This document shows positions 1 to 58,151 of a stretch of 64,000 bases of DNA, in pieces (position 1 is the stretch's first letter; each line of letters opens with the position of its first letter). Under the pieces are notes generated by a model. That model saw only the letters and a program-made list of their open reading frames with translations. It searched no databases and had not been told where the DNA came from. Both the position numbers and the translations under genes were made by a program. This stretch comes from Eledone cirrhosa (Eukaryota), in assembly GCA_964016885.1 (NCBI GenBank), contig OZ024744.1, positions 103,106,001-103,170,000 of the forward strand. The letters are read 5' to 3'.

Positions 1-3000
1 AGTCGGTCTACTGTTTAAAGTGGTCCTGCTGCCATGAAACTAAAAAGTTGTCAGTCAACTTTTTAAAGTGGTCCTGCTGACATGAAACTAAAAAGTAGTC
101 AGTCAACTTTTTAAAGTGGTCCTGCTGCCATGAAACTAAAAAGTTGTCAGTCAACTTTTTAAAGTGGTCCTGTTGCCATGAAACTAAAATTAGTCAGTCC
201 ACTGTTTAAAGTGGTCCTGCTGCCATGAAACTAAAAAGTAGTCAGTCCACTGTTTAAAGTGGCCCTGTTGCCATGAAACTAAAAAGTAGTCAGTCTACTG
301 TTTAAAGTGGTCCTGTTGCCATGAAACTAAAAAGTAACTAGTACACTGTTTAAAGTGGTCCTGCTGCCATGATACTAAAAAGTAGTCATTCTACTGTTTA
401 AAGTGGTCCTGCTGCCATGAAACTAAAACATAGTCATTCCACTGTTAAAAGTGGTCCTGCTACCATGAAACTAAAAAGTAACCAGTCCACTGTTTAAAGT
501 GGTCCTGCTTCCATGAAACTAAAAATTAGTCAGTCTACTGGTTAAAGTGATCCTGTTGCCATGAAACTAAAATCCTGTTGCCATGAAACTAAAAAGTAGT
601 CAGTCCACTGTTTAAACTGGTCCTGCTGCCATGAAACTAAAAAGTAACCAGTTCCAATGTTTGAAGTGGTCCTGTTGCCATGTAACTAAAAAGTAAACAG
701 TCTACTGTTTAAAGTGGTCCTGTTGCCATGAAACTAAAAAGTAAACAGTCTACTGTTTAAAGTGGTCCTGTTGCCATGAAACTAAAAAGTAAACAGTCTA
801 CTGTTTAAAGTGGTCCTGTTGCCATGAAACTAAAAAGTAAACAGTCTACTGTTTAAAGTGGTCCTGTTGCCATGAAACTAAAAAGTAAACAGTCTACTGT
901 TTAAAGTGGTCCTGTTGCCATGAAACTAAAAAGTAGTCAGTCTACTGTTTAAAGTGGTCCTGTTGCCGTGAAACTAAAAAGTAACCATTCCACTGTTTAA
1001 AGTGGTCCTGATGCCATGAAACTAGAAAGAAACCAGTCTACTGTTTAAAGTGGTCCTGTTGCCATGAAACTAAAGAGAAACCAGTCCACTGTTTAAAGTG
1101 CTCCTGCTGCCATGAAACTAAAAAGTAGTCAGTCTACTGTTTAAAGTGGTCCTGCTGCCATGAAACTAAAAAGTAACCAGGCTACTGTTTAAAGTGGTGC
1201 TGCTACCATGGAACTAAAAAGTAACCAGTCAACTGTTAAAAGTGGTCCTGCTGCCATGAAACTAAAAAGTAGTCAGTCTACAGTTTAAAGTGGTCCTGCT
1301 GCCATGAAACTAAAAAATAGTCAGTCCACTGTTTAAACTGGTCCTGTTGCCATGAAACTAAAATTAACCAGTCTACTGTTCAAAGTGGTCCTGCTGCCAC
1401 GATACTAAAAAGTAGTCAGTCCACTGTTTAAAGTGGTCCTGCTGCCATGAATCTAAAAAGTAGTCAGTCTACTGTTTAAAGTGGTCCTGCTGCCATGAAA
1501 CTAAAAAGTAGTCAGTCTACTGTTTAAAGTGATCCTGCTGCCATATAACTAAAAAGTAATCAGTCCACTGTTTAAAGTGGTCCTGCTACCATGAAACTAA
1601 AAAGTAGTTAGTCTACTGTTTAAAGTGCTCCTGCTGCCATTAAACTAAAAAGTAACCAGTCTACTATTTAAAGTGTTCCTGCTGCCATGGAACTAAAACG
1701 AAATCAGTCTACTGTTTAAAGTGGGCCTGCTGCCACGAAAGTAAAAAGTAGTCAGTCCACTGTTTAAAGTCGTCCTGCTGCCATGAAACTAAAAGGTAGT
1801 CAGTCTACCGTTTAAGGCAGTCTACTGTTTAAAGTGGTCCTGCTGCCATGAAACTAAAAATTAGTCAGTCTACTGTTTCAAGTGGTCCTGTTGCCATGAA
1901 ACTAAAAAGAAGTCAGTCTACTGTTTAATGTGGTCCTGCTGCCATGCAACTAAAAAGTAGTGAGTCCACTGTTTAAAGTGGCCCTGTTGCCATGAAACTA
2001 AAAAGTAGTCGGTCTACTGTTTAAAGTGGTCCTGCTGCCATGAAACTAAAAAGTAATCAGTCTACTGTTCAAAGTGGTCCTGCTGCCATGAAACTAAAAA
2101 ATAGTCATTCCACTGTTTAAACTGGTTCTGTTGCCATGAAACTAAAAAGTAACCAGTCTAGTCCTGTTGCCATGAAACCAAAAAATAGTCAGTCTACTGT
2201 TTAAAGTGATCCTGCTGACATGAAACTAAAAAGTAGTCAGTTTACTGTTTAAAGTGGTCCTGCTGCCATGAAACTAAAAAGTAGTCAGTCCACTGTTTAA
2301 AGTGGTCCTGCTGCCATGAAACTAAAAAGTAGTCAGTCAACTTTTTAAAGTGGTCCTGCTGCCATGAAACTAAAAAGTAGTGAGTCCACTGTTTAAAGTG
2401 GTCCTGCTGCCATGAAACTAAAAAGTAGTCAGTCTACTTTTTAAAGTGGTCCTGCTGTCATGGAACTAAAATTAGTCAGTCTACTGTTTAAAGTGGTCCT
2501 GTTGCCATGAAACTAAAAAGTAGTCAGTCTACTGTTTAAAGTGGTCCTGCTGCCATGAAACTAAAAAGTAGTCAGTCTACTGATTAAAGTGGTCCTGTTG
2601 CCATGAAACTAAAAAGTAGTCAGTCTACTGTTTAAAGTGGTCCTGCTGCCATGAAACTAAAAGTAGTCAGTATTGCTTAAAGTGGTCCTGCTGCCATGAA
2701 ATTAAAAAGTAAGCAGTCTACTGTTTCAAGTGGTCTTGCTGCCATGAAACTAAAAAGTAGTCAGTCTACTGTTTAAAGTGATCCTGCTGCCATGAAACTA
2801 AAAAGTAATCAGTCCACTGTTTAAAGTGGTCCTGCTACCATGAAACTAAAGAGTAACCAGTCCATGTTTAAAGTGGCCCTGCTGGCATGAAACTAAAAAG
2901 TAGTTAGTCTACTGTTTAAAGTGCTCCTGCTGCCATTAAACTAAAAAGAAGTCAGTCTACTGTTTAATGTGGTCCTGCTGCCATGAAACTAAAAAGTAGT

Positions 3001-9000: not shown

Positions 9001-12000
9001 CCATGAAACTAAAAAGTAACCAGTCTACTGTTCAAAGTGGTCCTGTTGCCATGAAACTAAAAAGTAACCAATCTACTGTTCAAAGTGGTCCTGTTGCCAT
9101 GAAACTAAAATTAACCATTCTACTGTTCAAAGTGGTCCTGCTGCCATGACACTAAAAAGTAGTCAGTCTACTGTTTAAAGTGGTCCTGCTGCCATGAAAC
9201 TAAAAAATAGTCATTCCACTGTTTAAACTGGTCCTGTTGCCATGAAACTAAAAAGTAGTCAGTCCACTGTTTAAAGTGGTCCTGCTGCTATGAAACTAAA
9301 AAGTAATCAGTCCACTGTTTAAACTGGTCCTGCTGCCATGAAACTAAAAAGTAACCAGTTCCACTGTTTAAAGTGGTCCTGCTGCCATGAAACTAAAAAG
9401 TAGTCAGTCTACTGTTTAAAGCAGTCTACTGTTTAAAGTGGTCCTGCTGCCATGAAACTAAAAAGTAACCAGTCCACTGTTTAAAGTGGTCCTGTTGCCA
9501 TGAAACTAAAGAGTAACCAGTCCACTGTTTAAAGTGCTCCTGCTGCCATGAAACTAAAAAGTAGTCAGTCTACTGTTTAAAGTGGTCCTGCTGCCATGAA
9601 ACTAAAAAGTAGTCAGTCTACTGTTTAAAGTGGTACTGCTGCCATGAAACTAAAAAGTAGACAGTGTACTGTTTAAAGTGGTCCTGTTGCCATGAAACTA
9701 AAGAGTAACCAGTCCACTGTTTAAAGTGCTCCTGCTGCCATGAAACTAACAAGTAGTCAGTCTACTGTTTAAAGTGGTCCTGCTGCCATGAAACTAAAAA
9801 GTAGTCAGTCTACTGTTTAAAGTTGTCCTGCTGCCATGAAACTAAAAAGGAACCAGTCTACTGTTTAAAGTGGTGCTGCTACCATGGAACTAAAAAGTAA
9901 CCAGTCCACTGTTTAAAGTGGTCCTGCTGCCATGAAACTAAAAAGTAGTCAGTCTACTGTTTAAAGTGATCCTGCTGCCATGAAACTAAAAAATAGTCAG
10001 TCCACTGTTTAATCTGGTCCTGTTGCCATGAAACTAAAAAGTAACCAGTCTACTGTTCAAAGTGGTCCTGTTGCCATGAAACTAAAAAGTAGTCAGTCTA
10101 CTGTTTAAAGTGGTCCTGCTGCCATGAAACTAAAAAGTAACCAGTCCACTGTTTAAAGTGGCCCTGTTGCCATGGAACTAAGAAGTAATCAGTCTACTGT
10201 TTAAAGTGGGCCTGCTGCCATGAAACTAAAAAGTAGTCAGTCTACTGTTTAAAGTGGTCCTGCTGCCATGAAACTAAAAAGTAGTCAGTCCACTGTTTAA
10301 ACTGGTCCTGCTGCCATGAAACTAAAAAGTAACCAGTTCCACTGTTTAAACTGGTCCTGCTGCCATGAAACTAAAAAGTAGTCAGTCCACTGTTTAAACT
10401 GGTCCTGCTGCCATGAAACTAAAAAGTAACCAGTCTACTGCTTAAAGTGGTCCTGTTGCCATGAAACTAAAAATTAGTCAGTCTACTGTTTCAAGTGGTC
10501 CTGTTGCAATGAAACTAAAAAGTAGTCAGTCTACTGTTTAATGTGGTCCTGCTGCCATGAAACTAAAAAGTAGTGAGTCCACTGTTTAAAGTGGCCCTGT
10601 TGCCATGAAACTAAAAAGTAGTCAGTCCACTGTTTAAAGTGGCCCTGTTGCCATGAAACTAAAAAGTAGTCAGTCTACTGTTTAAAGTGGTCCTGCTGCC
10701 ATGAAACTAAAAAATAATCATTCCACTGTTTAAACTGGTTCTGTTGCCATGAAACTAAAAAGTAACCAGTCTACTGTTCAAAGTGGTCCTGTTGCCATGA
10801 AACTAAAAAATAGTCAGTCTACTGTTTAAAGTGATCCTGCTGACATGAAACTAAAAAGTAGTCAGTCTACTGTTTAAAGTGGTCCTGCTGCCATGAAACT
10901 AAAAAGTAACTAGTCTACTGTTTAAAGTGATCCTGCTGCCATGAAACTAAACATTAGTCCGTCCACTGTTTAAAGTGGTCCTGCTGCCATGAGACTAAAA
11001 AGTAGTCAGTCTACTGTTTAAAGTGGTCCTGCTGCCATGAAACTAAAAAGTAGTCCGTCTACTGTTTAAAGTGGTCCTGTTGCCATGAAACTAAAAAGTA
11101 GTCAGTCTACTGTTTAAAGTGGTCCTGTTGCCATGAAACTAAAAAGTAGTCAGTCTACTGCTTAAAGTGGTCCTGCTGCCATGAAACTAAAAATTAGTCA
11201 GTCTACTGTTTAAAGTGGTCCTGCTGCTACGAAACTAAAAAGTAGTCAGTCTACTGCTTAAAGTGGTCCTGCTGCCATGAAACTAAAAAGTAATCAGTCT
11301 ACTGTTTAAAGTGATCCTGCTGACATGAAACTAAAAAGTAGTCAGTCTACTGTTTAAAGTGGTCCTGCTGCCATGAAACTAAAAAGTAACCAGTCTACTG
11401 TTTAAAGTGATCCTGCTCCCATGAAACTAAAAAGTAGTCAGTCTACTGTTGAAAGTGGTCCTGCTTCCATGAAACTAAAAAGTAACCAGTCTACTGTTTA
11501 AAGTGATCCTGCTCCCATGAAACTAAAAAGTAGTCAGTCTACTGTTGAAAGTGGTCCTGCTTCCATGAAACTAAAAAGTAACCAGTCTACTGTTTAAAGT
11601 GGCCCTGCTGCCATGAAACTAAAAAGTAACCAGTCTACTGTTTAAAGTGATCCTGCTGCCATGAAACTAAAAAGTAGTCAGTCCATATTTAAAGTGGTCC
11701 TGCTGCCATGAAACTAAAAAGGAGTCAGTCTACTGTTTAAAGTGGTCCTGCTGCCATGAAACTAAAAAGTAGTCACTCTACTGTTTAAAGTGGTCCTGTT
11801 GCCATGAAACTAGTAAGTAACTAGTACACTGTTTAAAGTGGTCCTGTTGCCATGCAACTAGTAAGTAACTAGTACACTGTTTAAAGTGATCCTGCTGCCA
11901 TGAAACTAAAAAGTAGTCAGTCCGCTGTTTAAAGTGGTCCTGCTGCCATGAAACTAAAAAGTAGTCAGTCCACTGTTCAAAGTGGCCCTGCTGCCAGGAA

Positions 12001-15000
12001 ACTAAAAAGTAGTCAGTCTACTGTTTAAAGTGATCCTGCTGACATGAAACTAAAAATTAGTCAGTCTACTGTCTAAAGTGGTCCTGTTGCCATGAAACTA
12101 AAAAGTAGTCAGTCTACTGTTTAAACTGGTCCTGCTGCCATGAAACTAAAAAGTGACCAGTCTACTGCTTAAAGTGGTCCTGCTGCCATGAAACTTGAAA
12201 GTAGTTACTCTACTGTTTAATGTAGTCCTGCTGCCATGTAACTAAAAGGTAACCAGTCTACTGTTTAAAGTGGTCCTACTGCCATGAAACTAAAAAATAG
12301 TCAGTCAACTGTTTAAACTGGTCCTGTTGCCATTAAACTAAAAAGTAACCAGTCTACTGTTTAAAGTGGTCCTGCTGCAATGAAACTAAAAAGTAGTCAG
12401 TCTACTGGTTAAAGTCGTCCTGCTGACATGAAACGAAAAAGTAGTCAGCCTTCAGTTTAAAGTGGTCCTGTTGCCATGAAACTAAAAATTAGTTAGTCCA
12501 CTGTTTAAAGTGGTCCTGCTGCCATTAAATTAAAAAGTAACCAGTCTACTGCTTAAAGTGGTCCTGCTGCCATGAAACTAAAAAGTAGTCAGTCTACTGT
12601 TAAAAGTAGTCCTGTTGTCATGAAACGAAACATTAGTCAGTCTACTGCTTAAAGTGGTCCTGTTGCCATGAAACTAAAGAGTAACCTGTCCACTGTTTAA
12701 AGTGGTCCTGCTGACATGGAACTAAAAAGTAGTCAGTCTACTGTTTAAAGTGGTCCTACTGCCATGAAACTGAAAAGTAGTCAGTCTACTGTTTAAAGTG
12801 GTCCTGCTGTCATGAAACTGAAAAGTAGTCAGTCTACTGTTTAAAGTGGTCCTACTGCCATGAAACTAAAAAATAGTCAGTCAACTGTTTAAACTGGTCC
12901 TGTTGCCATTAAACTAAAAAGTAACCAGTCTACTGTTTAAAGTGGTCCTGCTGCCATGAAACTAAAAAGTAGTCAGTCTACTGGTTAAAGTGGTCCTGTT
13001 GCCATTAAATTAAAAAGTAACCAGTCTACTGCTTAAAATGATCCTGCAGCCATGAAACTAAAGAGTAACCAGTCTACTGTTTAAAGTGATCCTGCTGCCA
13101 TGAAACTAAAAAATAGTCAGTCCACTGTTTAAAGTGGCCCTCCTGCCATGAATCTGAAAAGTGCCCAATCTACCGTGTAAGATGGCCTTGCTGGTGTTTA
13201 AAGTGGTCCTGCTGCCATGAAACTAAAAAGTAGTCGGTCCATGTTTACAGTGGTCCTGCTGCCATGAAACTAAAAAGTAGTCAGTCTACTGCTTAAAGTG
13301 ATCCTGCTGCCATGAAACTAAAAAGTAGTCAGTCTACTGTTTAAAGTGGTCCTGCTGCCATGAAACTAAAAAGTAGTCTGTCTACTGTTTAAAGTGGTCC
13401 TGCTGCCATGAAACTAAAAAGTAGTCAGTCTACTGTTTAAAGTGGTCTTGCTGCCATGAAACTAAAAAATTACTAGTACACTGTTTAATGTGGTCCTGCT
13501 GCCATGAAACTAAAAGGTAACCAGTCTACTATTTAAAGTGGTCCTGCTCCATGAAAATAAAAAGTAGTCAGTCCACTGTTTAAAGTGGTCCTGCTGCCAT
13601 GAAAGTAAAAAGTAGTAAGTCTACTGTTTAAAGTGGTCCTGCTGCCATGAAACTAAAAAGTAGCCAGTCTACTGTTTAAAGTGGTCCTGCTGCCATGAAA
13701 GTAAAAAGTTGTCAGTCAACTGTTTAAAGTGGTCCTGCTGTCATGAAACTAAAAAGTAGTCAGTCCACTGTTTAAAGTGGTGCTGCTGCCATGAAACTAA
13801 AAAGTAACCAGTCTACTGCTTAAAGTGGTCCTGCTGCCATGAAACTAAAAAGTAGTCAGTCTACTGTTTAATGTGGTCCTGCTGCCATGAAACTAAAAGG
13901 TAACCAGTCTACTGCTTAAAGTGGTCCTGCTGCCATGAAACAAAAAAGTAACCAGTCTACTGCTTAAAGTGGTCCTGTTGCCATGAAACTAAAAAGTAGT
14001 CAGTCTACTGTTTAAAGTGGTCCTGTTGCCATGAAACTAAAAAGTAGTCAGTCTACTGTTTAAAGTGGTCCTGCTGCCATGAAACTAAAAAGTAGTCAGT
14101 CTACTGTTTAAAGTTGTCCTGCTGCCATGGAACTAAAAAGTAATCAGTCTACTATTTAAAGTGGTCCTGCTGCCATGAAACTAAAAAGTAGTCAGTCCAC
14201 TGTTTAAAGTGGTCCTACTGCCATGAAACTAAAAAGTCACCAGTCTACTGTTTAAAGTGGTCCTACTGCCATGAAACTAAAAAGTCACCAGTCTACTGTT
14301 TAAAGTGGTCCTGCTGCTGTGAAACTAAAAAGTAGTCAGTCCACTGTTTAAACTGGTCCTGCTGCCATGAAACTAAAAAGTAACCAGTTCCACTGTTTAA
14401 AGTGGTCCTGATGCCATGAAAATAAAAAGTAATCAGTCTACTGTTTAAAGTGGTCCTGTTGCCATGAAACTAAAAAGTAGTCAGTCCACTGTTTAAAGTG
14501 GTCCTGCTACCATGAAACTAAAGAGTAACCAGTCCATGTTTAAAGGGGTCCTGCTGACATGAAACTAAAAAGTAGTCAGTCTACTGTTTAAAGTGCTCCT
14601 CCAGCCACTAAACTAAAAAGTAACCAGTATACTACTATTTAAAGTGGTCCTGCTGCCATGGAACTAAAACGTAATCAGTCTACTGTTTAAAGTGGGCCTG
14701 CTGCCATGAAACTAAAAAGTAGTCAGTCCACTGTTTAAAGTAGTCCTGGTGCCATGAAACTAAAAAGTTGTCAGTCAACTTTTTAAAGTGGTCCTGCTGC
14801 CATGAAACTAAAAAGTAGTCAGTCAACTTTTTAAAGTGGTCCAGCTGCCATGAAACTAAAAAGTTTTCAGTCAACTTTTTAAAGTGGTCCTGTTGCCATG
14901 AAACTAAAATTAGTCAGTCCACTGTTTAAACTGGCCCTGTTGCCATGAAACTAAAAAGTAGTCAGTCTACTGTTTAAAGTGGTCCTGCTGCCATGAAACT

Positions 15001-18000
15001 AAAAAATAGTCATTCCACTGTTTAAACTGGTTCTGTTGCCATGAAACTAAAAAGTAACCAGTCTAGTCCTGTTGCCATGAAACTAAAAAATAGTCAGTCT
15101 ACTGTTTAAAGTGATCCTGCTGACATGAAAGTAAAAAGTATCCAGTCTACTGTTTAAAGTGGTCCTGCTGCCATGAAACTAAAAAGTAACCAGTCTACTG
15201 TTTAAAGTGATCCTGCAGCCATGAAACTAAAGAGTAACCAGTCTACTATTTAAAGTGGTCCTGCTGCCATGAAACTAAAAAGTAACCAGTCTACTGTTTA
15301 AAGTGGCCCTGCTGCCATGGAACTAAAAAGTAGTCAGTCCACTGTTTAAAGTGGTCCTGCTGCCATGAAACTAAAAAGTAACCAGTCTACTGTTTAAAGT
15401 GATCCTGCTGCCATGAAACTAAAACGTAGTCAGTCCACCGTTTAAAGTGGTCCTGCTGCCATGAAACTAAAAAGTAGTCAGTCTACTGTTTAAAGTGGTC
15501 CTGCTGCCATGAAACTAAAAATAGTCAGTCTACTTTTTAAATTAGTCCTGCTGCCATGAAACTAAAAAGTAGTCACTCTACTGTTTAAAGTGGTCCTGTT
15601 ACCATGAAACTAAAAAGTAACTAGTACACTGTTTAAAGTGGTCCTGTTGCCATGAAACTAAAATATAGTCAGTCCACTGTTTAAAGTGATCCTGCTGCCA
15701 TGAAACTAAAAAGTAGTAAGTCTACTGTTTAAAGTTGTCCTGTTGCCATGAAAGTAAAAAGTAGTCAGTCTACTGTTTACAGTGGTCCTGTTGCCATGAA
15801 ACTAAAAAGTAGTCAGTCTACTGTTTAAAGTGGTCCTGCTGCCATGAAACTAAAAAGTAGTCAGTCTACTGCTTAAAGTGGTCCTGCTGCCATGAAATTA
15901 AAAAGTAACCAGTCTACTGTTTCAGGTGGTCCTGCTGCCATGGAACTAAAAAGTAGTCAGTCTACTGTTTAAAGTGGTCCTGCTGCCATGAAACTAAAAA
16001 GTAGTCAGTCTACTGCTTAAAGTGATCCTGCTGCCATGAAACTAAAAAGTAACCAGTCCACTGTTTAATGTAGTCCTACTGCCATGAAACTAAAAAGTAG
16101 TGAGTCCACTGTTTAAAGTGTCCCTGTTGCCATGAAAATAAAAAGTAGTCGTTCTACTGTTTAAAGTGGTCCTGTTGCCATGAAACTAAAAAGTAACCAG
16201 TCTACTGTTTAAAGTGGTGCTGTTGCCATGAAACTAAAAAGGAAACAGTCTACTGTTTAAAGTGGTCCTGTTGCCATGAAACTAAAAAGTAGACAGTCTA
16301 CTGTTTAAAGTGGTCCTGTTGCCATGAAACTAAAGAGTAACCAGTCCACTGTTTAAAGTGGTGCTGATACCATGGAACTAAAAAGTAACCAGTCCACTGT
16401 TTAAATTGGTCCTGCTGCCATGAAACTAAAAAGTAGTCAGTCTACTGTTTAAAGTGGTCCTGTTGCCATGGAACTAAAAAATAGTCATTCCACTGTTTAA
16501 ACTGGTCCTGTTGCCATGAAACTAAAAAGTAACCAGTCTACTGTTCAAAGTGGTCCTGTTGCCATGAAACTAAAAAGTAACCAATCTACTGTTCAAAGTG
16601 GTCCTGTTGCCATGAAACTAAAATTAACCATTCTACTGTTCAAAGTGGTCCTGCTGCCATGACACTAAAAAGTAGTCAGTCTACTGTTTAAAGTGGTCCT
16701 GCTGCCATGAAACTAAAAAATAGTCATTCCACTGTTTAAAGTGGTCCTGCTGCTATGAAACTAAAAAGTAATCAGTCCACTGTTTAAACTGGTCCTGCTG
16801 CCATGAAACTAAAAAGTAACCAGTTCCACTGTTTAAAGTGGTCCTGCTGCCATGAAACTAAAAAGTAGTCAGTCTACTGTTTAAAGCAGTCTACTGTTTA
16901 AAGTGGTCCTGCTGCCATGAAACTAAAAAGTAACCAGTCCACTGTTTAAAGTGGTCCTGTTGCCATGAAACTAAAGAGTAACCAGTCCACTGTTTAAAGT
17001 GCTCCTGCTGCCATGAAACTAAAAAGTAGTCAGTCTACTGTTTAAAGTGGTCCTGCTGCCATGAAACTAAAAAGTAGTCAGTCTACTGTTTAAAGTGGTA
17101 CTGCTGCCATGAAACTAAAAAGTAGACAGTGTACTGTTTAAAGTGGTCCTGTTGCCATGAAACTAAAGAGTAACCAGTCCACTGTTTAAAGTGCTCCTGC
17201 TGCCATGAAACTAACAAGTAGTCAGTCTACTGTTTAAAGTGGTCCTGCTGCCATGAAACTAAAAAGTAGTCAGTCTACTGTTTAAAGTTGTCCTGCTGCC
17301 ATGAAACTAAAAAGGAACCAGTCTACTGTTTAAAGTGGTGCTGCTACCATGGAACTAAAAAGTAACCAGTCCACTGTTTAAAGTGGTCCTGCTGCCATGA
17401 AACTAAAAAGTAGTCAGTCTACTGTTTAAAGTGATCCTGCTGCCATGAAACTAAAAAATAGTCAGTCCACTGTTTAATCTGGTCCTGTTGCCATGAAACT
17501 AAAAAGTAACCAGTCTACTGTTCAAAGTGGTCCTGTTGCCATGAAACTAAAAAGTAGTCAGTCTACTGTTTAAAGTGGTCCTGCTGCCATGAAACTAAAA
17601 AGTAACCAGTCCACTGTTTAAAGTGGCCCTGTTGCCATGGAACTAAGAAGTAATCAGTCTACTGTTTAAAGTGGGCCTGCTGCCATGAAACTAAAAAGTA
17701 GTCAGTCTACTGTTTAAAGTGGTCCTGCTGCCATGAAACTAAAAAGTAGTCAGTCCACTGTTTAAACTGGTCCTGCTGCCATGAAACTAAAAAGTAACCA
17801 GTTCCACTGTTTAAACTGGTCCTGCTGCCATGAAACTAAAAAGTAGTCAGTCCACTGTTTAAACTGGTCCTGCTGCCATGAAACTAAAAAGTAACCAGTC
17901 TACTGCTTAAAGTGGTCCTGTTGCCATGAAACTAAAAATTAGTCAGTCTACTGTTTCAAGTGGTCCTGTTGCAATGAAACTAAAAAGTAGTCAGTCTACT

Positions 18001-21000
18001 GTTTAATGTGGTCCTGCTGCCATGAAACTAAAAAGTAGTGAGTCCACTGTTTAAAGTGGCCCTGTTGCCATGAAACTAAAAAGTAGTCAGTCCACTGTTT
18101 AAAGTGGCCCTGTTGCCATGAAACTAAAAAGTAGTCAGTCTACTGTTTAAAGTGGTCCTGCTGCCATGAAACTAAAAAATAATCATTCCACTGTTTAAAC
18201 TGGTTCTGTTGCCATGAAACTAAAAAGTAACCAGTCTACTGTTCAAAGTGGTCCTGTTGCCATGAAACTAAAAAATAGTCAGTCTACTGTTTAAAGTGAT
18301 CCTGCTGACATGAAACTAAAAAGTAGTCAGTCTACTGTTTAAAGTGGTCCTGCTGCCATGAAACTAAAAAGTAACTAGTCTACTGTTTAAAGTGATCCTG
18401 CTGCCATGAAACTAAACATTAGTCCGTCCACTGTTTAAAGTGGTCCTGCTGCCATGAGACTAAAAAGTAGTCAGTCTACTGTTTAAAGTGGTCCTGCTGC
18501 CATGAAACTAAAAAGTAGTCCGTCTACTGTTTAAAGTGGTCCTGTTGCCATGAAACTAAAAAGTAGTCAGTCTACTGTTTAAAGTGGTCCTGTTGCCATG
18601 AAACTAAAAAGTAGTCAGTCTACTGCTTAAAGTGGTCCTGCTGCCATGAAACTAAAAAGTAGTCAGTCTACTGTTTAAAGTGGTCCTGCTGCTACGAAAC
18701 TAAAAAGTAGTCAGTCTACTGCTTAAAGTGGTCCTGCTGCCATGAAACTAAAAAGTAATCAGTCTACTGTTTAAAGTGATCCTGCTGACATGAAACTAAA
18801 AAGTAGTCAGTCTACTGTTTAAAGTGGTCCTGCTGCCATGAAACTAAAAAGTAACCAGTCTACTGTTTAAAGTGATCCTGCTCCCATGAAACTAAAAAGT
18901 AGTCAGTCTACTGTTGAAAGTGGTCCTGCTTCCATGAAACTAAAAAGTAACCAGTCTACTGTTTAAAGTGATCCTGCTCCCATGAAACTAAAAAGTAGTC
19001 AGTCTACTGTTGAAAGTGGTCCTGCTTCCATGAAACTAAAAAGTAACCAGTCTACTGTTTAAAGTGGCCCTGCTGCCATGAAACTAAAAAGTAACCAGTC
19101 TACTGTTTAAAGTGATCCTGCTGCCATGAAACTAAAAAGTAGTCAGTCCATATTTAAAGTGGTCCTGCTGCCATGAAACTAAAAAGGAGTCAGTCTACTG
19201 TTTAAAGTGGTCCTGCTGCCATGAAACTAAAAAGTAGTCACTCTACTGTTTAAAGTGGTCCTGTTGCCATGAAACTAGTAAGTAACTAGTACACTGTTTA
19301 AAGTGGTCCTGTTGCCATGCAACTAGTAAGTAACTAGTACACTGTTTAAAGTGATCCTGCTGCCATGAAACTAAAAAGTAGTCAGTCCGCTGTTTAAAGT
19401 GGTCCTGCTGCCATGAAACTAAAAAGTAGTCAGTCCACTGTTCAAAGTGGCCCTGCTGCCAGGAAACTAAAAAGTAGTCAGTCTACTGTTTAAAGTGATC
19501 CTGCTGACATGAAACTAAAAATTAGTCAGTCTACTGTCTAAAGTGGTCCTGTTGCCATGAAACTAAAAAGTAGTCAGTCTACTGTTTAAACTGGTCCTGC
19601 TGCCATGAAACTAAAAAGTGACCAGTCTACTGCTTAAAGTGGTCCTGCTGCCATGAAACTTGAAAGTAGTTACTCTACTGTTTAATGTAGTCCTGCTGCC
19701 ATGTAACTAAAAGGTAACCAGTCTACTGTTTAAAGTGGTCCTACTGCCATGAAACTAAAAAATAGTCAGTCAACTGTTTAAACTGGTCCTGTTGCCATTA
19801 AACTAAAAAGTAACCAGTCTACTGTTTAAAGTGGTCCTGCTGCAATGAAACTAAAAAGTAGTCAGTCTACTGGTTAAAGTCGTCCTGCTGACATGAAACG
19901 AAAAAGTAGTCAGCCTTCAGTTTAAAGTGGTCCTGTTGCCATGAAACTAAAAATTAGTTAGTCCACTGTTTAAAGTGGTCCTGCTGCCATTAAATTAAAA
20001 AGTAACCAGTCTACTGCTTAAAGTGGTCCTGCTGCCATGAAACTAAAAAGTAGTCAGTCTACTGTTAAAAGTAGTCCTGTTGTCATGAAACGAAACATTA
20101 GTCAGTCTACTGCTTAAAGTGGTCCTGTTGCCATGAAACTAAAGAGTAACCTGTCCACTGTTTAAAGTGGTCCTGCTGACATGGAACTAAAAAGTAGTCA
20201 GTCTACTGTTTAAAGTGGTCCTACTGCCATGAAACTGAAAAGTAGTCAGTCTACTGTTTAAAGTGGTCCTGCTGTCATGAAACTGAAAAGTAGTCAGTCT
20301 ACTGTTTAAAGTGGTCCTACTGCCATGAAACTAAAAAATAGTCAGTCAACTGTTTAAACTGGTCCTGTTGCCATTAAACTAAAAAGTAACCAGTCTACTG
20401 TTTAAAGTGGTCCTGCTGCCATGAAACTAAAAAGTAGTCAGTCTACTGGTTAAAGTGGTCCTGTTGCCATTAAATTAAAAAGTAACCAGTCTACTGCTTA
20501 AAATGATCCTGCAGCCATGAAACTAAAGAGTAACCAGTCTACTGTTTAAAGTGATCCTGCTGCCATGAAACTAAAAAATAGTCAGTCCACTGTTTAAAGT
20601 GGCCCTCCTGCCATGAATCTGAAAAGTGCCCAATCTACCGTGTAAGATGGCCTTGCTGGTGTTTAAAGTGGTCCTGCTGCCATGAAACTAAAAAGTAGTC
20701 GGTCCATGTTTACAGTGGTCCTGCTGCCATGAAACTAAAAAGTAGTCAGTCTACTGCTTAAAGTGATCCTGCTGCCATGAAACTAAAAAGTAGTCAGTCT
20801 ACTGTTTAAAGTGGTCCTGCTGCCATGAAACTAAAAAGTAGTCTGTCTACTGTTTAAAGTGGTCCTGCTGCCATGAAACTAAAAAGTAGTCAGTCTACTG
20901 TTTAAAGTGGTCTTGCTGCCATGAAACTAAAAAATTACTAGTACACTGTTTAATGTGGTCCTGCTGCCATGAAACTAAAAGGTAACCAGTCTACTATTTA

Positions 21001-24000
21001 AAGTGGTCCTGCTCCATGAAAATAAAAAGTAGTCAGTCCACTGTTTAAAGTGGTCCTGCTGCCATGAAAGTAAAAAGTAGTAAGTCTACTGTTTAAAGTG
21101 GTCCTGCTGCCATGAAACTAAAAAGTAGCCAGTCTACTGTTTAAAGTGGTTCTGCTGCCATGAAAGTAAAAAGTTGTCAGTCAACTGTTTAAAGTGGTCC
21201 TGCTGTCATGAAACTAAAAAGTAGTCAGTCCACTGTTTAAAGTGGTGCTGCTGCCATGAAACTAAAAAGTAACCAGTCCACTGTTTAAAGTGGTCCTGTT
21301 GCCATGAAACTAAAGAGTAACCAGTCCACTGTTTAAAGTGCTCCTGCTGCCATGAAACTAAAAAGTAGTCAGTCTACTGTTTAAAGTGGTCCTGCTGCCA
21401 TGAAACTAAAAAGTAGTCAGTCTACTGTTTAAAGTGGTACTGCTGCCATGAAACTAAAAAGTAGACAGTGTACTGTTTAAAGTGGTCCTGTTGCCATGAA
21501 ACTAAAGAGTAACCAGTCCACTGTTTAAAGTGCTCCTGCTGCCATGAAACTAACAAGTAGTCAGTCTACTGTTTAAAGTGGTCCTGCTGCCATGAAACTA
21601 AAAAGTAGTCAGTCTACTGTTTAAAGTTGTCCTGCTGCCATGAAACTAAAAAGGAACCAGTCTACTGTTTAAAGTGGTGCTGCTACCATGGAACTAAAAA
21701 GTAACCAGTCCACTGTTTAAAGTGGTCCTGCTGCCATGAAACTAAAAAGTAGTCAGTCTACTGTTTAAAGTGATCCTGCTGCCATGAAACTAAAAAATAG
21801 TCAGTCCACTGTTTAATCTGGTCCTGTTGCCATGAAACTAAAAAGTAACCAGTCTACTGTTCAAAGTGGTCCTGTTGCCATGAAACTAAAAAGTAGTCAG
21901 TCTACTGTTTAAAGTGGTCCTGCTGCCATGAAACTAAAAAGTAACCAGTCCACTGTTTAAAGTGGCCCTGTTGCCATGGAACTAAGAAGTAATCAGTCTA
22001 CTGTTTAAAGTGGGCCTGCTGCCATGAAACTAAAAAGTAGTCAGTCTACTGTTTAAAGTGGTCCTGCTGCCATGAAACTAAAAAGTAGTCAGTCCACTGT
22101 TTAAACTGGTCCTGCTGCCATGAAACTAAAAAGTAACCAGTTCCACTGTTTAAACTGGTCCTGCTGCCATGAAACTAAAAAGTAGTCAGTCCACTGTTTA
22201 AACTGGTCCTGCTGCCATGAAACTAAAAAGTAACCAGTCTACTGCTTAAAGTGGTCCTGTTGCCATGAAACTAAAAATTAGTCAGTCTACTGTTTCAAGT
22301 GGTCCTGTTGCAATGAAACTAAAAAGTAGTCAGTCTACTGTTTAATGTGGTCCTGCTGCCATGAAACTAAAAAGTAGTGAGTCCACTGTTTAAAGTGGCC
22401 CTGTTGCCATGAAACTAAAAAGTAGTCAGTCCACTGTTTAAAGTGGCCCTGTTGCCATGAAACTAAAAAGTAGTCAGTCTACTGTTTAAAGTGGTCCTGC
22501 TGCCATGAAACTAAAAAATAATCATTCCACTGTTTAAACTGGTTCTGTTGCCATGAAACTAAAAAGTAACCAGTCTACTGTTCAAAGTGGTCCTGTTGCC
22601 ATGAAACTAAAAAATAGTCAGTCTACTGTTTAAAGTGATCCTGCTGACATGAAACTAAAAAGTAGTCAGTCTACTGTTTAAAGTGGTCCTGCTGCCATGA
22701 AACTAAAAAGTAACTAGTCTACTGTTTAAAGTGATCCTGCTGCCATGAAACTAAACATTAGTCCGTCCACTGTTTAAAGTGGTCCTGCTGCCATGAGACT
22801 AAAAAGTAGTCAGTCTACTGTTTAAAGTGGTCCTGCTGCCATGAAACTAAAAAGTAGTCCGTCTACTGTTTAAAGTGGTCCTGTTGCCATGAAACTAAAA
22901 AGTAGTCAGTCTACTGTTTAAAGTGGTCCTGTTGCCATGAAACTAAAAAGTAGTCAGTCTACTGCTTAAAGTGGTCCTGCTGCCATGAAACTAAAAAGTA
23001 GTCAGTCTACTGTTTAAAGTGGTCCTGCTGCTACGAAACTAAAAAGTAGTCAGTCTACTGCTTAAAGTGGTCCTGCTGCCATGAAACTAAAAAGTAATCA
23101 GTCTACTGTTTAAAGTGATCCTGCTGACATGAAACTAAAAAGTAGTCAGTCTACTGTTTAAAGTGGTCCTGCTGCCATGAAACTAAAAAGTAACCAGTCT
23201 ACTGTTTAAAGTGATCCTGCTCCCATGAAACTAAAAAGTAGTCAGTCTACTGTTGAAAGTGGTCCTGCTTCCATGAAACTAAAAAGTAACCAGTCTACTG
23301 TTTAAAGTGATCCTGCTCCCATGAAACTAAAAAGTAGTCAGTCTACTGTTGAAAGTGGTCCTGCTTCCATGAAACTAAAAAGTAACCAGTCTACTGTTTA
23401 AAGTGGCCCTGCTGCCATGAAACTAAAAAGTAACCAGTCTACTGTTTAAAGTGATCCTGCTGCCATGAAACTAAAAAGTAGTCAGTCCATATTTAAAGTG
23501 GTCCTGCTGCCATGAAACTAAAAAGGAGTCAGTCTACTGTTTAAAGTGGTCCTGCTGCCATGAAACTAAAAAGTAGTCACTCTACTGTTTAAAGTGGTCC
23601 TGTTGCCATGAAACTAGTAAGTAACTAGTACACTGTTTAAAGTGGTCCTGTTGCCATGCAACTAGTAAGTAACTAGTACACTGTTTAAAGTGATCCTGCT
23701 GCCATGAAACTAAAAAGTAGTCAGTCCGCTGTTTAAAGTGGTCCTGCTGCCATGAAACTAAAAAGTAGTCAGTCCACTGTTCAAAGTGGCCCTGCTGCCA
23801 GGAAACTAAAAAGTAGTCAGTCTACTGTTTAAAGTGATCCTGCTGACATGAAACTAAAAATTAGTCAGTCTACTGTCTAAAGTGGTCCTGTTGCCATGAA
23901 ACTAAAAAGTAGTCAGTCTACTGTTTAAACTGGTCCTGCTGCCATGAAACTAAAAAGTGACCAGTCTACTGCTTAAAGTGGTCCTGCTGCCATGAAACTT

Positions 24001-27000
24001 GAAAGTAGTTACTCTACTGTTTAATGTAGTCCTGCTGCCATGTAACTAAAAGGTAACCAGTCTACTGTTTAAAGTGGTCCTACTGCCATGAAACTAAAAA
24101 ATAGTCAGTCAACTGTTTAAACTGGTCCTGTTGCCATTAAACTAAAAAGTAACCAGTCTACTGTTTAAAGTGGTCCTGCTGCAATGAAACTAAAAAGTAG
24201 TCAGTCTACTGGTTAAAGTCGTCCTGCTGACATGAAACGAAAAAGTAGTCAGCCTTCAGTTTAAAGTGGTCCTGTTGCCATGAAACTAAAAATTAGTTAG
24301 TCCACTGTTTAAAGTGGTCCTGCTGCCATTAAATTAAAAAGTAACCAGTCTACTGCTTAAAGTGGTCCTGCTGCCATGAAACTAAAAAGTAGTCAGTCTA
24401 CTGTTAAAAGTAGTCCTGTTGTCATGAAACGAAACATTAGTCAGTCTACTGCTTAAAGTGGTCCTGTTGCCATGAAACTAAAGAGTAACCTGTCCACTGT
24501 TTAAAGTGGTCCTGCTGACATGGAACTAAAAAGTAGTCAGTCTACTGTTTAAAGTGGTCCTACTGCCATGAAACTGAAAAGTAGTCAGTCTACTGTTTAA
24601 AGTGGTCCTGCTGTCATGAAACTGAAAAGTAGTCAGTCTACTGTTTAAAGTGGTCCTACTGCCATGAAACTAAAAAATAGTCAGTCAACTGTTTAAACTG
24701 GTCCTGTTGCCATTAAACTAAAAAGTAACCAGTCTACTGTTTAAAGTGGTCCTGCTGCCATGAAACTAAAAAGTAGTCAGTCTACTGGTTAAAGTGGTCC
24801 TGTTGCCATTAAATTAAAAAGTAACCAGTCTACTGCTTAAAATGATCCTGCAGCCATGAAACTAAAGAGTAACCAGTCTACTGTTTAAAGTGATCCTGCT
24901 GCCATGAAACTAAAAAATAGTCAGTCCACTGTTTAAAGTGGCCCTCCTGCCATGAATCTGAAAAGTGCCCAATCTACCGTGTAAGATGGCCTTGCTGGTG
25001 TTTAAAGTGGTCCTGCTGCCATGAAACTAAAAAGTAGTCGGTCCATGTTTACAGTGGTCCTGCTGCCATGAAACTAAAAAGTAGTCAGTCTACTGCTTAA
25101 AGTGATCCTGCTGCCATGAAACTAAAAAGTAGTCAGTCTACTGTTTAAAGTGGTCCTGCTGCCATGAAACTAAAAAGTAGTCTGTCTACTGTTTAAAGTG
25201 GTCCTGCTGCCATGAAACTAAAAAGTAGTCAGTCTACTGTTTAAAGTGGTCTTGCTGCCATGAAACTAAAAAATTACTAGTACACTGTTTAATGTGGTCC
25301 TGCTGCCATGAAACTAAAAGGTAACCAGTCTACTATTTAAAGTGGTCCTGCTCCATGAAAATAAAAAGTAGTCAGTCCACTGTTTAAAGTGGTCCTGCTG
25401 CCATGAAAGTAAAAAGTAGTAAGTCTACTGTTTAAAGTGGTCCTGCTGCCATGAAACTAAAAAGTAGCCAGTCTACTGTTTAAAGTGGTCCTGCTGTCAT
25501 GAAACTAAAAAGTAGTCAGTCCACTGTTTAAAGTGGTGCTGCTGCCATGAAACTAAAAAGTAACCAGTCTACTGCTTAAAGTGGTCCTGCTGCCATGAAA
25601 CTAAAAAGTAGTCAGTCTACTGTTTAATGTGGTCCTGCTGCCATGAAACTAAAAGGTAACCAGTCTACTGCTTAAAGTGGTCCTGCTGCCATGAAACAAA
25701 AAAGTAACCAGTCTACTGCTTAAAGTGGTCCTGTTGCCATGAAACTAAAAAGTAGTCAGTCTACTGTTTAAAGTGGTCCTGTTGCCATGAAACTAAAAAG
25801 TAGTCAGTCTACTGTTTAAAGTGGTCCTGCTGCCATGAAACTAAAAAGTAGTCAGTCTACTGTTTAAAGTTGTCCTGCTGCCATGGAACTAAAAAGTAAT
25901 CAGTCTACTGTTTAAAGTGGTCCTGCTGCCATGAAACTAAAAAGTAGTCAGTCCACTGTTTAAAGTGGTCCTACTGCCATGAAACTAAAAAGTCACCAGT
26001 CTACTGTTTAAAGTGGTCCTGTTGCCATGAAACTAAAAAGTAACCAGTCTACTGCTTAAAGTGGTCCTTTTGCCATGAAACTAAAAAGTAGTCAGTCCAC
26101 TGTTTAAAGTGGTCCTGCTGCCATGAAAGTAAAAAGTAGTAATCTACCGTTTAAAGTGGTCCTGTTGCCATGAAACTAAAAAGTAGTTAGTCCACTGTTT
26201 AAAGTGATTCTGCTGCTATGAAACTAAAAAGTAACCAGTCTACTGCTTAAAGTGGTCCTTTTGCCATGAAACTAAAAAGTAGTCAGTCTACTGTTTAAAG
26301 TGGTCCTGTTACCATGAAACTAAAAAGTAGTCAGTCTACTGTTTAAAGTGGTCCTGCTGCCATGAAACTAAAAAGTTGTCAGTCTACTGTTTAAACTGGT
26401 CCTGTTGCCATGCAACTAAAAAGTAACCAGTTTACTGTTTAAAGTGGTCCTGCTGCCATGAAACTAAAACATAACTAGTACACTGTTTAAAGTGGTCCTT
26501 TTGCTATGAAACTAAAAAGTAGTCAGCCTTCTGTTTAAAGTGGTCCTGTTGCCATGAAACTAAAAAGTAGTTAGTCCACTGTTTAAAGTGGTCCTGCTGC
26601 CATGAAACTAAAAATAACCAGTCTACTGCTTAAAGTGGTGCTGTTGCCATGAAACTAAAAAGTAGTCAGTCTACTGTTTAAAGTGGTCCTGTTGCCATGT
26701 AACTAAAAAGTAACCAGACTACTGTTTAAAGTGGTCCTGCTGCCATGAAACGAAAAACTAACCAGTCTACTGTTTAAAGTGGTCGTGTTGCCATGAAACT
26801 AAAAAGTCACCAATCTACTGTTTAAAGTGGTCCTGCTGCCATGAAACGAAAAACTAACCAGTCTACTGTTTAAAGTGATCCTGCAGCCATGAAACTAAAA
26901 AATAGTCAGTCCACTGTTAAACGTGGCCCTCCTGCCATGAATCTGAAAAGTGCCCAATGTACCCTGTAAGATGGCCTTGCTGGTGTTTAAAGTGGTCCTG

Positions 27001-30000
27001 CTGCCATGAAACGAAAAAGTAACCAGTCCACTGTTTGAAGTGGTCTTCCTGCCATGAAACTAAAAAGTAACCAGTCCACTGTTTAAAGTGGTCCTCCTGC
27101 CATGAAACTAAAAAGTAGTCAGTCTACTGTTTAAAGTGGTCCTGCTGCCATGAAACTAAAAAGTAACCAGTCTACTGTTTAAACTGGTCCTGTTGCCATG
27201 CAACTAAAAAGTAACTAGTACACTGCTTAAAGTGGTCCGTTTGCCCTGAAACTAAAAATTAGTCAGTCCACTGTTTAAAGTGGTCCTGTTGCCATGAAAC
27301 TAAAAAGTAGTCAGTCTACTATTTAAAGTGGTCCTGCTGCCATGAAACTAAAAAGTAGTCAGTCTACTGTTTAAAGTGGTCCTGATGCCATGGAACTAAA
27401 AAGTAATCAGTCTACTGTTTAAAGTGGTCCTGCTGCCATGAAACTAAAAAGTAGTCAGTCCACTGTTTAAAGTGGTCCTGCTGCCATGAAACTAAAAAGT
27501 CACCAGTCTACTGTTTAAAGTGGTCCTGTTGCCATGAAACTAAAAAGTAACCAGTCTACTGCTTAAAGTGGTCCTTTGCCATGAAACTAAAAAGTAGTCA
27601 GTCCACTGTTTAAAGTGGTCCTGCTGCCATGAAAGTAAAAAGTAGTAAGTCTACCGTTTAAAGTGGTCCTGTTGCCATGAAACTAAAAAGTAGTTAGTCC
27701 ACTGTTTAAAGTGATTCTGCTGCTATGAAACTAAAAAGTAACCAGTCTACTGCTTAAAGTGGTCCTTTTGCCATGAAACTAAAAAGTAGTCAGTCTACTG
27801 TTTAAAGTGGTCCTGCTGCCATGAAACTAAAAAGTAGTCAGTCTACTGTTTAAAGTGGTCGTGCATCCATGAAACTAAAAAGTAACCAGTCCACTGTTTA
27901 AAGTGGTCCTGCTGCCATGAAACTAAAAGGTAACCAGTCTACTGCTTAAAGTGGTCCTGCTGCCATGAAACAAAAGTTAGTCAGTCCACTGTTTAAAGTG
28001 GTCCTGTTGCCATGAAACTAAAACGTAACCAGTCCACTGTTTAAAGTGGTCCTGCTGCCATGAAACTAAAAAGTAACCAGTCTACTGCTTAAAGTGGTTC
28101 TGTTGCCATGAAACTAATAAGTAACCAGTCTACTGTTTAAAGTGCTCCTGCTGCCATCAAACTAAAATTTAGTCAGTCCATGTTTAAAGTGGTCCTGCTG
28201 CCATGAAACTAAAAAGTAGTCAGTCTTCTGTTTAAAGTGGTCCTGTTGCCATGAAACTAAAAAGTCGTCAGTCTTCTGTTTAAAGTGGTCCTGTTGCCAT
28301 GAAACTAAAAAGTAGTCAGTCTACTGTTTAAAGTGGTCCTGCTGCCATGGAACTAAAAAGTAATCAGTCTACTGTTTAAAGTGGTCCTGCTGCCATGAAA
28401 CTAAAAAGTAGTCAGTCCACTGTTTAAAGTGGTCCTGCTGCCATGAAACTAAAAAGTCACCAGTCTACTGTTTAAAGTGGTCCTGTTGCCATGAAACTAA
28501 AAAGTAACCAGTCTACTACTTAAAGTGGTCCTTTGCCATGAAACTAAAAAGTAGTCAGTCCACTGTTTAAAGTGGTCCTGCTGCCATGAAAGTAAAAAGT
28601 AGTAAGTCTACCGTTTAAAGTGGTCCTGTTGCCATGAAACTAAAAAGTAGTTAGTCCACTGTTTAAAGTGATTCTGCTGCTATGAAACTAAAAAGTAACC
28701 AGTCTACTGCTTAAAGTGGTCCTTTTGCCATGAAACTAAAAAGTAGTCAGTCTACTGTTTAAAGTGGTCCTGCTGCCATGAAACTAAAAAGTTGTCAGTC
28801 TACTGTTTAAACTGGTCCTGTTGCCATGCAACTAAAAAGTAACCAGTTTACTGTTTAAAGTGGTCCTGCTGCCATGAAACTAAAAAGTAATCAGTCTACT
28901 GTTTAAAGTGGTCGCGCATCCCTGAAACTAAAAAGTAACCAGTCCACTGTTTAAAGTGGTCCTGCTGCCATGAAACTAAAAAGTAACCAGTCTACTGCTT
29001 AAAGTGGTCCTGCTGCCATGAAACAAAAGTTAGTCAGTCCACTGTTTAAAGTGGTCCTGCTGCCATGAAACTAAAACGTAACCAGTCCACTGTTTAAAGT
29101 GGTCCTGCTTCCATGAAACTAAAAAGTAACCAGTCTACTGCTTAAAGTGGTTCTGTTGCCATGAAACTAAAAAGTAACCAGTCTACTGTTTAAAGTGGTC
29201 CTGTTGCCATGAATCTAAAAAGTAACCAGTCCACTGTTTAAAGTGCTCCTGCTGCCATCAAACTAAAATTTAGTCAGTCCATGTTTAAAGTGGTCCTGAT
29301 GCCATGAGACTAAAAAGTAGTCAGTCTACTGTTTAAAGTGGTCCTGCTGCCATGAAACTAAAAAGTAACCAATCTACTGTTTAAAGTGGTCCTGCTGCCA
29401 TGAAACTAAAAAGTAGTCAGTCTACTGTTTAAAGTGGTTCTGCTGCCATGAAACTAAAAAGTAGTCAGTCCATGTTTAAAGTGGTCCTGCTGCCATGAAA
29501 CTAAAAAGTAGTCAGTCTACTGTTTAATGTGGTCCTGCTGCCATGAAACTAAAAAGTAGTCAGTCTACTGTTTAAAGTGGTCCTACTGCCATGAAACTAA
29601 AAAGAAGTCAGTCCACTGTTTAATGTGGTCCTGCTGCCATGAAACTAAAAAGAAGTCAGTCTACTGTTTAAAGTGGTCCTGCTGCCATGAAACTTGAAAG
29701 TAGTCAGTCTACTGTTTAAAGTGGTCCTGCTGCCATGAAACTAAAAATTAACCAGTCCACTGTTTAAAGTGGTCCTGCTGCCATGAAACTAAAAATTAAC
29801 CAGTCCACTGTTTAAAGTGGTCCTGCTGCCATGAAACTAAAAAGTAGTCAGTCTACTGTTTAAAGTGGTCCTGCTGCCATGAAACTTGAAAGTAGTCAGT
29901 CTACTGTTTAAAGTGGTCCTGCTGCCATGAAACTAAAAATTAACCAGTCCACTGTTTAAAGTGGTCCTGCTGCCATGAAACTAAAAATTAACCAGTCCAC

Positions 30001-30072
30001 TGTTTAAAGTGGTCCTCCTGCCATGAATCTGAAAACTGCCCAATCCACCGTGTAAGATGGCCATGATGGTGT
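1..30072. repeat. 48-bp satellite DNA array, about 625 monomers, continuing past the left edge of the window
   Basis: Consensus GCCATGAAACTAAAAAGTAGTCAGTCTACTGTTTAAAGTGGTCCTGCT repeats head-to-tail with recurrent variants (AGTAACC/AGTAGTC, TCCAC/TCTAC, CTGTT/CTGCT). The consensus has stops in all six frames; the short minus-strand ORFs show the 16-aa (48-bp) period. The array ends in a divergent monomer at about 30012-30072. Confidence 0.98.
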
Positions 30073-30179
30073 CCACTTTAGAATGTAATTTACAACCTTC
30101 TGCAATCCTCATAATTGTGTTTAAAATATATAAATGATATCAAAATTTCACTCGGCTTTGAATGTATGTTGTAAGTAGT

Positions 30180-41050: not shown

Positions 41051-41059
41051 TCATACAGT

Positions 41060-51746: not shown

Positions 51747-51764
51747 AATTATATATTCGTGTAC

Positions 51765-57903: not shown

Positions 57904-58151
57904 CCATATATTATATTAGCAAAAGTATATGGTGATGTCTGGGTTTTGTATCCATAGTTAATAAGATCAGATTTTAGAGAGAACTGGCTGGTATATCAAG
58001 CATATCTACTTACCAGTTGTGTATAGCAATGACAACATCATATAGATGTAAGTATGAAGTTCAAAAAGGAGATTATTGTGTTAGAGATCACCAAACTAAA
58101 AGTAGTAACCAACTCTTCCTCAAATTACACACCAGCCTATATTTATAAATG

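Follow-up and report, generated by a model that had tools for sequence, protein, structure and literature searches.

Where did a long satellite array obtain its repeat, when the DNA beside it carries retroelements that might have supplied one? The question is raised by a window of 64,000 nucleotides from the octopod Eledone cirrhosa (GenBank assembly GCA_964016885.1, contig OZ024744.1, positions 103,106,001 to 103,170,000 of the forward strand), the whole of which was analyzed here. The window opens with about 30 kb of a 48-bp tandem repeat. Further along it carries copies of a long interspersed nuclear element (LINE) and of short interspersed nuclear elements (SINEs), the shared 3' tail of which includes a unit of 46-50 nt. 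A preliminary description of this DNA had proposed that the satellite derives from that tail unit. Judging from sequence comparison, we consider monomer and tail unit probably homologous, with a signal that is real but moderate and to which their shared period contributes a part, and we lean towards descent of the satellite from the tail unit.

The satellite array and the LINE/SINE tail unit

The array occupies positions 1-30053 and, being a long head-to-tail run of a homogenized monomer (621 units over 30 kb), qualifies as satellite DNA. Splitting it at an anchor gave 626 anchors with 553 spacings of exactly 48 bp, the left side being cut by the window edge; merging of false splits leaves the 621 units, 559 of which are exactly 48 bp. 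The 553 monomers comprise 222 distinct sequences with an average identity of 93.6% to the majority consensus. There are four polymorphic columns, and columns 34-35 define two linked subtypes, GT (339/553) and AC (162/553). Throughout, plus denotes the satellite strand that corresponds to the LINE/SINE tail in its sense orientation. The array has no reading frame longer than 91 codons. An Rfam scan of the window returned no family at gathering score, and nothing meaningful at the array edge, which argues against a ribozyme of the retrozyme kind; a scan of the window for transfer RNA (tRNA) genes returned none. We read it as an ordinary satellite, probably a heterochromatic one.

Positions 1 to 30005, plus strand: 48-bp satellite, main (A-type) monomers in a tandem array whose left end lies beyond the window
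Positions 16909 to 25489, plus strand: exact 4,242-bp tandem duplication within the array (16909-21150 is identical to 21248-25489)

The preliminary description also credited the satellite with a higher-order structure, which overstates what is present. Identical monomers recur at distances of 247, 156, 91, 157 and 41-42 units, and each of these periods arises from two or three copies only, so that the array consists of nested duplications of differing lengths rather than the fixed n-mer in many tandem copies typical of alpha-satellite higher-order repeats. The 4,242-bp block has a third copy at 9444-13685 that differs by one base. Exact later copies of earlier runs of at least 350 bp amount to 11,274 bp of the array, with cores that are identical or nearly so, and the true array length might accordingly be smaller. 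The 4.2-kb blocks are compatible with very recent unequal exchange and with mis-assembly, either of which is possibly their cause; exact runs of 300 bp are absent from the 24-bp satellite nearby.

The tail unit from which the monomer is proposed to descend lies to the right of the array, in two LINE copies, two SINE copies and an older tail:

Positions 50256 to 50294, plus strand: 19-bp segment of the LINE itself, duplicated in tandem (x2.1) where LINE copy A is truncated at its 5' end
Positions 50265 to 51443, plus strand: 5'-truncated LINE copy A, the C-terminal part of its reverse transcriptase (RT) open reading frame (ORF), with an internal PHD finger
Positions 51478 to 51572, plus strand: tandem tail units of 49 nt (51478-51526) and 46 nt (51527-51572) in the 3' untranslated region (UTR) of copy A
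Positions 51573 to 51745, plus strand: remainder of the shared LINE/SINE tail, with (GAT)n at its end; not in the satellite
Positions 52906 to 53001, minus strand: two tandem tail units of LINE copy B, which is inverted and 98% identical to copy A
Positions 53092 to 53210, minus strand: 21-bp unit (x5.7) derived from the last part of the LINE ORF and situated where copy B is 5'-truncated
Positions 58784 to 58841, plus strand: tRNA-like head of the first SINE (28.1 bits, E 0.0014, just below the gathering score of 29)
Positions 58944 to 59001, plus strand: start of the SINE tail, holding a single unit (58952-59001) that a short direct repeat brackets
Positions 61221 to 61268, minus strand: unit of an older tail that has diverged; the final portion of a further unit lies ahead of it
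Positions 61401 to 61449, minus strand: tail unit belonging to another SINE copy, which is 86% identical to the first
Positions 61465 to 61510: 10-bp unit (x4.4) at the body/tail junction of the second SINE copy

The tandem unit of about 49 bp in the LINE 3' UTR and its counterpart in the SINE tail are both present as first described: two units begin 35 nt past the stop codon of copy A and are followed by the short partial start of a third, and the first SINE has a single unit. We add three loci on the minus strand (53001-52906, 61449-61401 and 61268-61221). The 46-50-nt unit is thus found at five loci of the window, with two units in each LINE copy and one in each SINE copy and in the older tail, and it is a tandem unit of variable copy number inside an element's 3' UTR, of the sort known from Ogre elements. 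The SINE tail is 90% identical to the LINE over 118 nt, as befits a tRNA-derived SINE with a LINE tail. In both SINE copies the part shared with the LINE starts just before the tail unit. The direct repeat bracketing the unit exists because the unit's opening bases recur, in degenerate form, where the distal tail begins.

The ORF of copy A matches RVT_1 (E 8.5e-15). Among its named relatives, a protein of Octopus bimaculoides ranks best (63% over 72%), which makes an octopod the probable host. The element combines a LINE-type RT with a microsatellite 3' end and gives weak matches to L1 and R2 structures; both copies are 5'-truncated, and protein-atlas and PDB searches returned no clade name for the RT. 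The C-terminal motif of the RT appears RTE-like and together with the (GAT)n end would suit that name, making RTE a plausible label on sequence features. RTE-BovB is reported as expanded in cephalopods (PMC10294476). The PHD finger (50652-50783) lies inside the C-terminal part of the RT ORF and is common to most of 120 relatives among the matches listed, cnidarian and lancelet ones included; the literature searches yielded no obvious published description of a PHD finger within a LINE RT ORF.

Several further features adjoin these elements. The LINE tails (copy A, 51370-51756, plus; copy B, 53111-52721, minus) lie about 1 kb from each other in inverted orientation and are 98% identical. A 27-bp minisatellite with an 86-bp superperiod (51765-52358) follows directly after copy A; read on the minus strand, it comes nearly as close to the 48-bp monomer as the tail unit. 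The body/tail junction of the first SINE coincides with an inverted repeat (58918-58943) whose 11-bp arms match perfectly around a 4-nt loop and which is absent from the second copy. A SINE is inserted in an older tail, and its 3' end together with the target forms a 49-nt chimera (61317-61269, minus), which is the best minus-strand match of the array edge.

Likeness of monomer and tail unit

The initial case for kinship was a hand count of about 34 identities in 46 ungapped columns. The monomer used for it is a minority AC-type variant with five exact copies among the 553, and it differs from the majority consensus at three positions, two of which shift the consensus away from the tail unit. 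The figure of 34/46 stands for that variant once gaps of 3 nt and 2 nt are allowed, but not for an ungapped alignment, of which the best reaches 31/46 with the variant and 29/46 with the consensus. With gaps, the consensus reaches 32 of 46 aligned columns by hand count. Its best single-locus match is the SINE unit 58952-59001 (37 identities, 6 mismatches, 5 gaps), and over 48 nt the monomer shares about 70-80% identity with the tail unit.

Such values invite the explanation that two unrelated short imperfect palindromes, each with an A-run, look alike once gapped and were picked by eye from a repeat-rich window. Shuffle tests locus by locus bear on this directly. They covered four loci, LINE copy B being omitted as redundant with copy A. 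The score of the whole consensus monomer is reached by 0, 0, 1 and 21 of 1000 circular dinucleotide shuffles, and by 0, 0, 1 and 13 of 1000 shuffles that preserve both the hairpin and the A-run. At the young tail loci the count is thus 0-1/1000, and the latter null, with 0-1/1000 at three loci, speaks against likeness through palindrome and A-run. A local test of single units at +5/-4 gave 0-7/4000 for four units, and 1620/4000 for the old unit.

Since the pair had been picked from the whole window, window-wide searches are the fair tests; these took in all non-satellite DNA on both strands. First, a profile of the satellite dimer ranks tail units 1-3 (E 0.0056, 0.0088 and 0.08), and its 12.5 bits are reached by 0/250 column shuffles and 0/250 block shuffles. 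Second, alignment of the whole monomer finds its best match in the LINE tail, a score equaled by 7/170 shuffles for the consensus and 0/170 for the variant. Third, a 72-nt consensus query reached its score in 4/300 trials of a periodic null, a result that supersedes the too favorable 0/1000 from a non-periodic null at one rotation. Window-wide queries of the right length place their best or near-best match on the tail unit, in the same strand and register. To this may be added the agreement of periods (46-50 for the tail unit, 48 for the satellite), a two-helix hairpin whose register the two have in common, and a 72-nt segment from the divergent array edge, a semi-independent query, for which the tail loci are the best match on both strands (3/1000 shuffles). 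Both the period agreement and the choice of the same tail loci by the edge segment are awkward for chance, as are the window-wide periodic and profile-shuffle nulls.

A second group of results weighs on the other side. The local test of single units varies with the scoring scheme: with BLAST-like scoring, 27-1576/4000 shuffles reach the consensus score. A profile of the monomer, as opposed to the dimer, finds no tail window-wide (best E 4.4), and the reverse search of the array with a tail profile gives a best E of 0.77. When the second LINE unit is removed, a 48-nt query is equaled in 43/300 trials, and the best match passes to the SINE unit. A query with the internal 69-bp form of the edge segment is marginal (47/1000). 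The unrelated 27-bp minisatellite, used as a decoy because it came top of a permissive search, scores 15 where the young tails score 17-19 (3/1000), and the permissive scoring ranks it above the tails (187 vs 185). The 43/300, the blank monomer profile, the reverse E value, the decoy and the ungapped 29/46 are what would be expected if the likeness were fortuitous. Setting both groups together, we regard chance as unlikely, though by no means negligible. The expectation that the monomer would align to the tail better than shuffled controls is thus borne out per locus and under most window-wide nulls, but gives way (43/300) without the second LINE unit. By its above-shuffle homology the array belongs, at moderate strength, with transposon-derived satellites.

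Direction of descent, the array edge and a possible birth

If monomer and tail unit are homologous, composition would favor the path from tail to satellite. The tail unit has a GC content of 55%, the monomer 39.6% and the flanks 39.4%. The polarized differences between the consensus sequences are four GC-to-AT and no AT-to-GC, and within the array mutation is biased towards AT by about 2:1 (10.8 GC-to-AT vs 5.1 changes per site in the opposite sense). The two LINE units have five CpGs and the consensus dimer none; satellites are reported to be the sole repeat class with raised methylation in O. bimaculoides (PMC9476566).

The homology might have come about the other way, with the LINE capturing its unit from an older satellite or minisatellite, or both parties might descend from a third repeat, such as another tail subfamily or the junction of a SINE 3' end with an older tail. 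In favor of these readings, the alignment points to no single source: the LINE, the SINE junction and the chimeric junction (61317-61269, minus) each match best a different portion or version of the monomer, and the tail unit is an add-on upstream of a conserved distal tail. However, to make a tail unit out of the satellite would take AT-to-GC changes, contrary to the bias measured in the array, and the gain of five CpGs. Moreover, the unit behaves as an old and stable part of the tail: the LINE-shared segment of the SINE starts there in both copies, and the unit is present in the old tail as well. We hold a reverse or third source to be quite improbable.

Features at the 3' edge of the array bear on its ancestry as well:

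Positions 13131 to 13199, plus strand: internal B-type monomer with a 21-nt edge extension (69 bp); more copies start at 20596, 24935 and 26920
Positions 30006 to 30053, plus strand: B-type edge monomer, with 11 differences from the consensus
Positions 30054 to 30077, plus strand: outermost partial unit, retaining a tail-type spacer that is 3 nt longer and absent from A-type monomers

The outermost partial unit matches the start of the tail unit at 51478 in 17/23 positions with one gap and scores 9 against it, as opposed to 3.5 against the satellite consensus. For three of six tail units tested, that score is equaled by 1.3-1.7% of window 12-mers. The B-type edge monomer may be a relic of an older monomer form. 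This older edge monomer, the tail-like partial unit and the recent kilobase-scale duplications of the interior are offered together as support for a tail-derived array.

Several observations temper descent from the tail. For the other three of the six units, the outermost-unit score is equaled by 7-17% of window 12-mers, and the edge-spacer test was devised post hoc, when the sequence had already been inspected. B-type differences coincide with tail states no more often than by chance (p 0.12-0.19), and past about 20 nt (the partial unit being 24 nt) the 3' edge of the array has no continuation into the distal tail. Conservation of the satellite at tail-invariant columns is not clearly greater than elsewhere (20/24 vs 15/20), and four against zero polarized differences are too few for significance. 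Finally, no element-attached array of at least three units occurs among the five tail loci of the window, the maximum being two; the arrays still attached to a transposable element that a tail origin would lead one to look for are missing from these 64 kb.

Three more specific readings of the edge were tried and rejected. The edge monomer is not nearer to the tail than A-type monomers are (rank 513/621; B-type differences reach tail states at the p values just given). The 3' edge does not run on into the distal tail, 103-2571 of 3000 shuffles matching equally in 30 tests. Lastly, a SINE head/body fragment at 30269-30411 (minus), 190 bp from the array edge, is no candidate for the seed, as it lies on the opposite strand and is without a tail.

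We nonetheless lean towards descent from the tail unit, and the LINE family suggests how it might have begun. Where its copies are truncated at the 5' end, short stretches of the element itself stand repeated in tandem (2/2 copies; 19 bp x2.1 and 21 bp x5.7). One SINE has a comparable 10-bp unit (x4.4) at its body/tail junction, and the 21-bp mini-array of copy B is attached to the element, with a unit different from that of the satellite. The source would be an old relative of these LINE/SINE elements and not copies A or B themselves. A first short array might have arisen through slippage during insertion, as proposed for RTE-linked microsatellites (PMC2887409), or through unequal exchange between the bracketing direct repeats; unequal crossing-over and conversion would then have expanded and homogenized one variant. 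That variant would have lost 3 nt, gained 2 nt, shed its CpGs and drifted in AT content to the level of the flanks, with the array being maintained by recombination rather than through any RNA function.

A bolder version of the tail-derived origin has the LINE RT, reiterating its template at 5' junctions, directly writing the first tail-hairpin array, which then became a major (peri)centromeric octopus satellite with the hairpin kept. We view this as a long shot. Were it true, an array written by RT would link one enzymatic step to the birth of a satellite and open a first way into the centromere DNA of cephalopods.

A functional explanation starts from structure. A two-helix hairpin is predicted for the monomer and, in the same register, for the tail unit. 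The fold of one consensus-type monomer surpasses that of its shuffles (z -2.06, 7/200), and 64 of 70 cells are paired among seven tail units; the preliminary description had suggested a decoy or a small-RNA source. Satellite transcripts would thereby divert the LINE RT, or yield small RNAs that silence the family. Yet folding of the tail units does not exceed that of shuffles (z -0.74 to +1.05), covariation is unsupported (67/500), and 130/553 monomers have a mismatch at the polymorphic stem pair 13:34 of the satellite. The longest exact word common to satellite and tail is 10-13 nt and occurs in rare variants. The best 21-nt window has 15-16 matches with the consensus and 16-18 with any variant, and the best 28-nt window 18-20 and 21-22, respectively. 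Matching at this level over 21-28 nt is too low for targeting by PIWI-interacting RNAs (piRNAs) or small interfering RNAs (siRNAs). The satellite thus offers neither the near-complete 21-28-nt complementarity of a piRNA or siRNA source nor the 3'-terminal recognition region of an RT decoy: the distal 170 nt of the tail and the (GAT)n, where priming starts, are absent from it (for background on LINE 3'-end recognition, see PMC4824008 and PMC3747384). The short shared words and the missing distal tail leave the suggested role unsupported; on these sequence grounds a silencing or decoy role is unlikely, and as an explanation for the resemblance we give it very little credence. Read-through of the inverted LINE tails A and B would give about 390 bp of double-stranded RNA, a better substrate for small-RNA production or editing than the satellite.

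The rest of the window is likewise rich in repeats, namely a 24-bp satellite, Helitron fragments, LINE pieces and SINEs. The 24-bp satellite (31141-35853, x195), 1.1 kb from the first, has almost no G on the plus strand (GC skew near -1). A fragmented, putatively Helitron-like element with Pif1 helicase domains lies at 47023-49617. LINE remnants are found at 40434-41749 (minus), 56585-57109 (minus) and 58109-58660 (plus): one is about 70% identical to the copy A ORF, another has RVT_1, and the third has a putatively LINE-like C-terminus.

Parallels among retroelement-derived satellites

Searches beyond the window were uniformly negative in what they covered. The tail motif has 0 matches in bacterial and archaeal genome contigs, where the LINE RT protein gave 29 pattern matches, none of them confirmed. 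Translations of tail and satellite found nothing at E 1 in a protein set restricted to lengths of 0.55-1.75x. Five sequence motifs searched in literature text brought up irrelevant human matches only, and the repeat motifs were not in the four of eight supplementary files of PMC9115989 that were searched; that paper treats another octopus RTE, with a 3' UTR that is mostly microsatellite. RTE-derived parts of Ceph-SINEs are the subject of PMC5786205, in whose covered sections the present tail does not appear. A literature search, with most subscription journals outside its coverage, yielded no description of a cephalopod satellite derived from a retroelement 3' end. Further sources in the comparison set are PMC12628747, on satellites from retroelement 3' ends, and PMC4245944.

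One close parallel is with plant satellites from Ogre long terminal repeat (LTR) retrotransposons, PisTR-A of pea and 9 of 11 satellites of Lathyrus sativus, in which a copy-variable tandem repeat of the 3' UTR gave rise to a long free array (PMC7004042, PMC9659126), as is proposed for Eledone. However, the source here would be a non-LTR LINE with partner SINEs, whose UTR holds just one or two units. The plant cases were proved by element-attached intermediates, of which none was seen in this window.

In animals, the squamate sSats (PMC10702118) are tandem copies of part of a SINE/LINE tail; their longer arrays are more homogeneous and their edge units differ from those in the middle, much as in the present array. 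Their units measure 70-290 nt as opposed to 48 nt, and most sSat arrays end in a longer unit that reaches the SINE terminus, whereas the visible edge here is tail-like for about 20 nt only. With no extended terminal unit at that 3' edge, we keep the satellite out of the sSat family. The same source terms earlier SINE-satellite examples inconclusive.

The monomers of the cetacean common satellite (L1 3' end), Drosophila 18HT (HeT-A/TART 3' non-coding) and chicken HinfI (CR1 3' UTR and ORF2) resemble non-LTR 3' ends (PMC9659126), as does the monomer studied here. The LINE clades involved differ from the present one, and in our case one short internal unit makes up the whole monomer. The cetacean, 18HT and HinfI satellites have long monomers, which take in a far larger share of the element. 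Two further comparisons concern scale. The microsatellite families made by RTE elements (PMC2887409) resemble our case in the proposed seeding by slippage, but their repeats are 1-6-bp tails rather than 48-bp units. The SINE arrays of bivalves (PMC11481361) are likewise molluscan tandem arrays, with 2-15 whole SINEs against hundreds of 48-bp units.

At present these parallels suggest no new biological function. If its origin is confirmed, the locus would bring together, within a compact 64 kb, the unit of origin, mini-arrays resembling seeds, a relic at the edge and the mature array, making it useful for testing how satellites start. The kind is already known from plants, flies, birds, whales and reptiles, and the octopod case is probably a new example of it.

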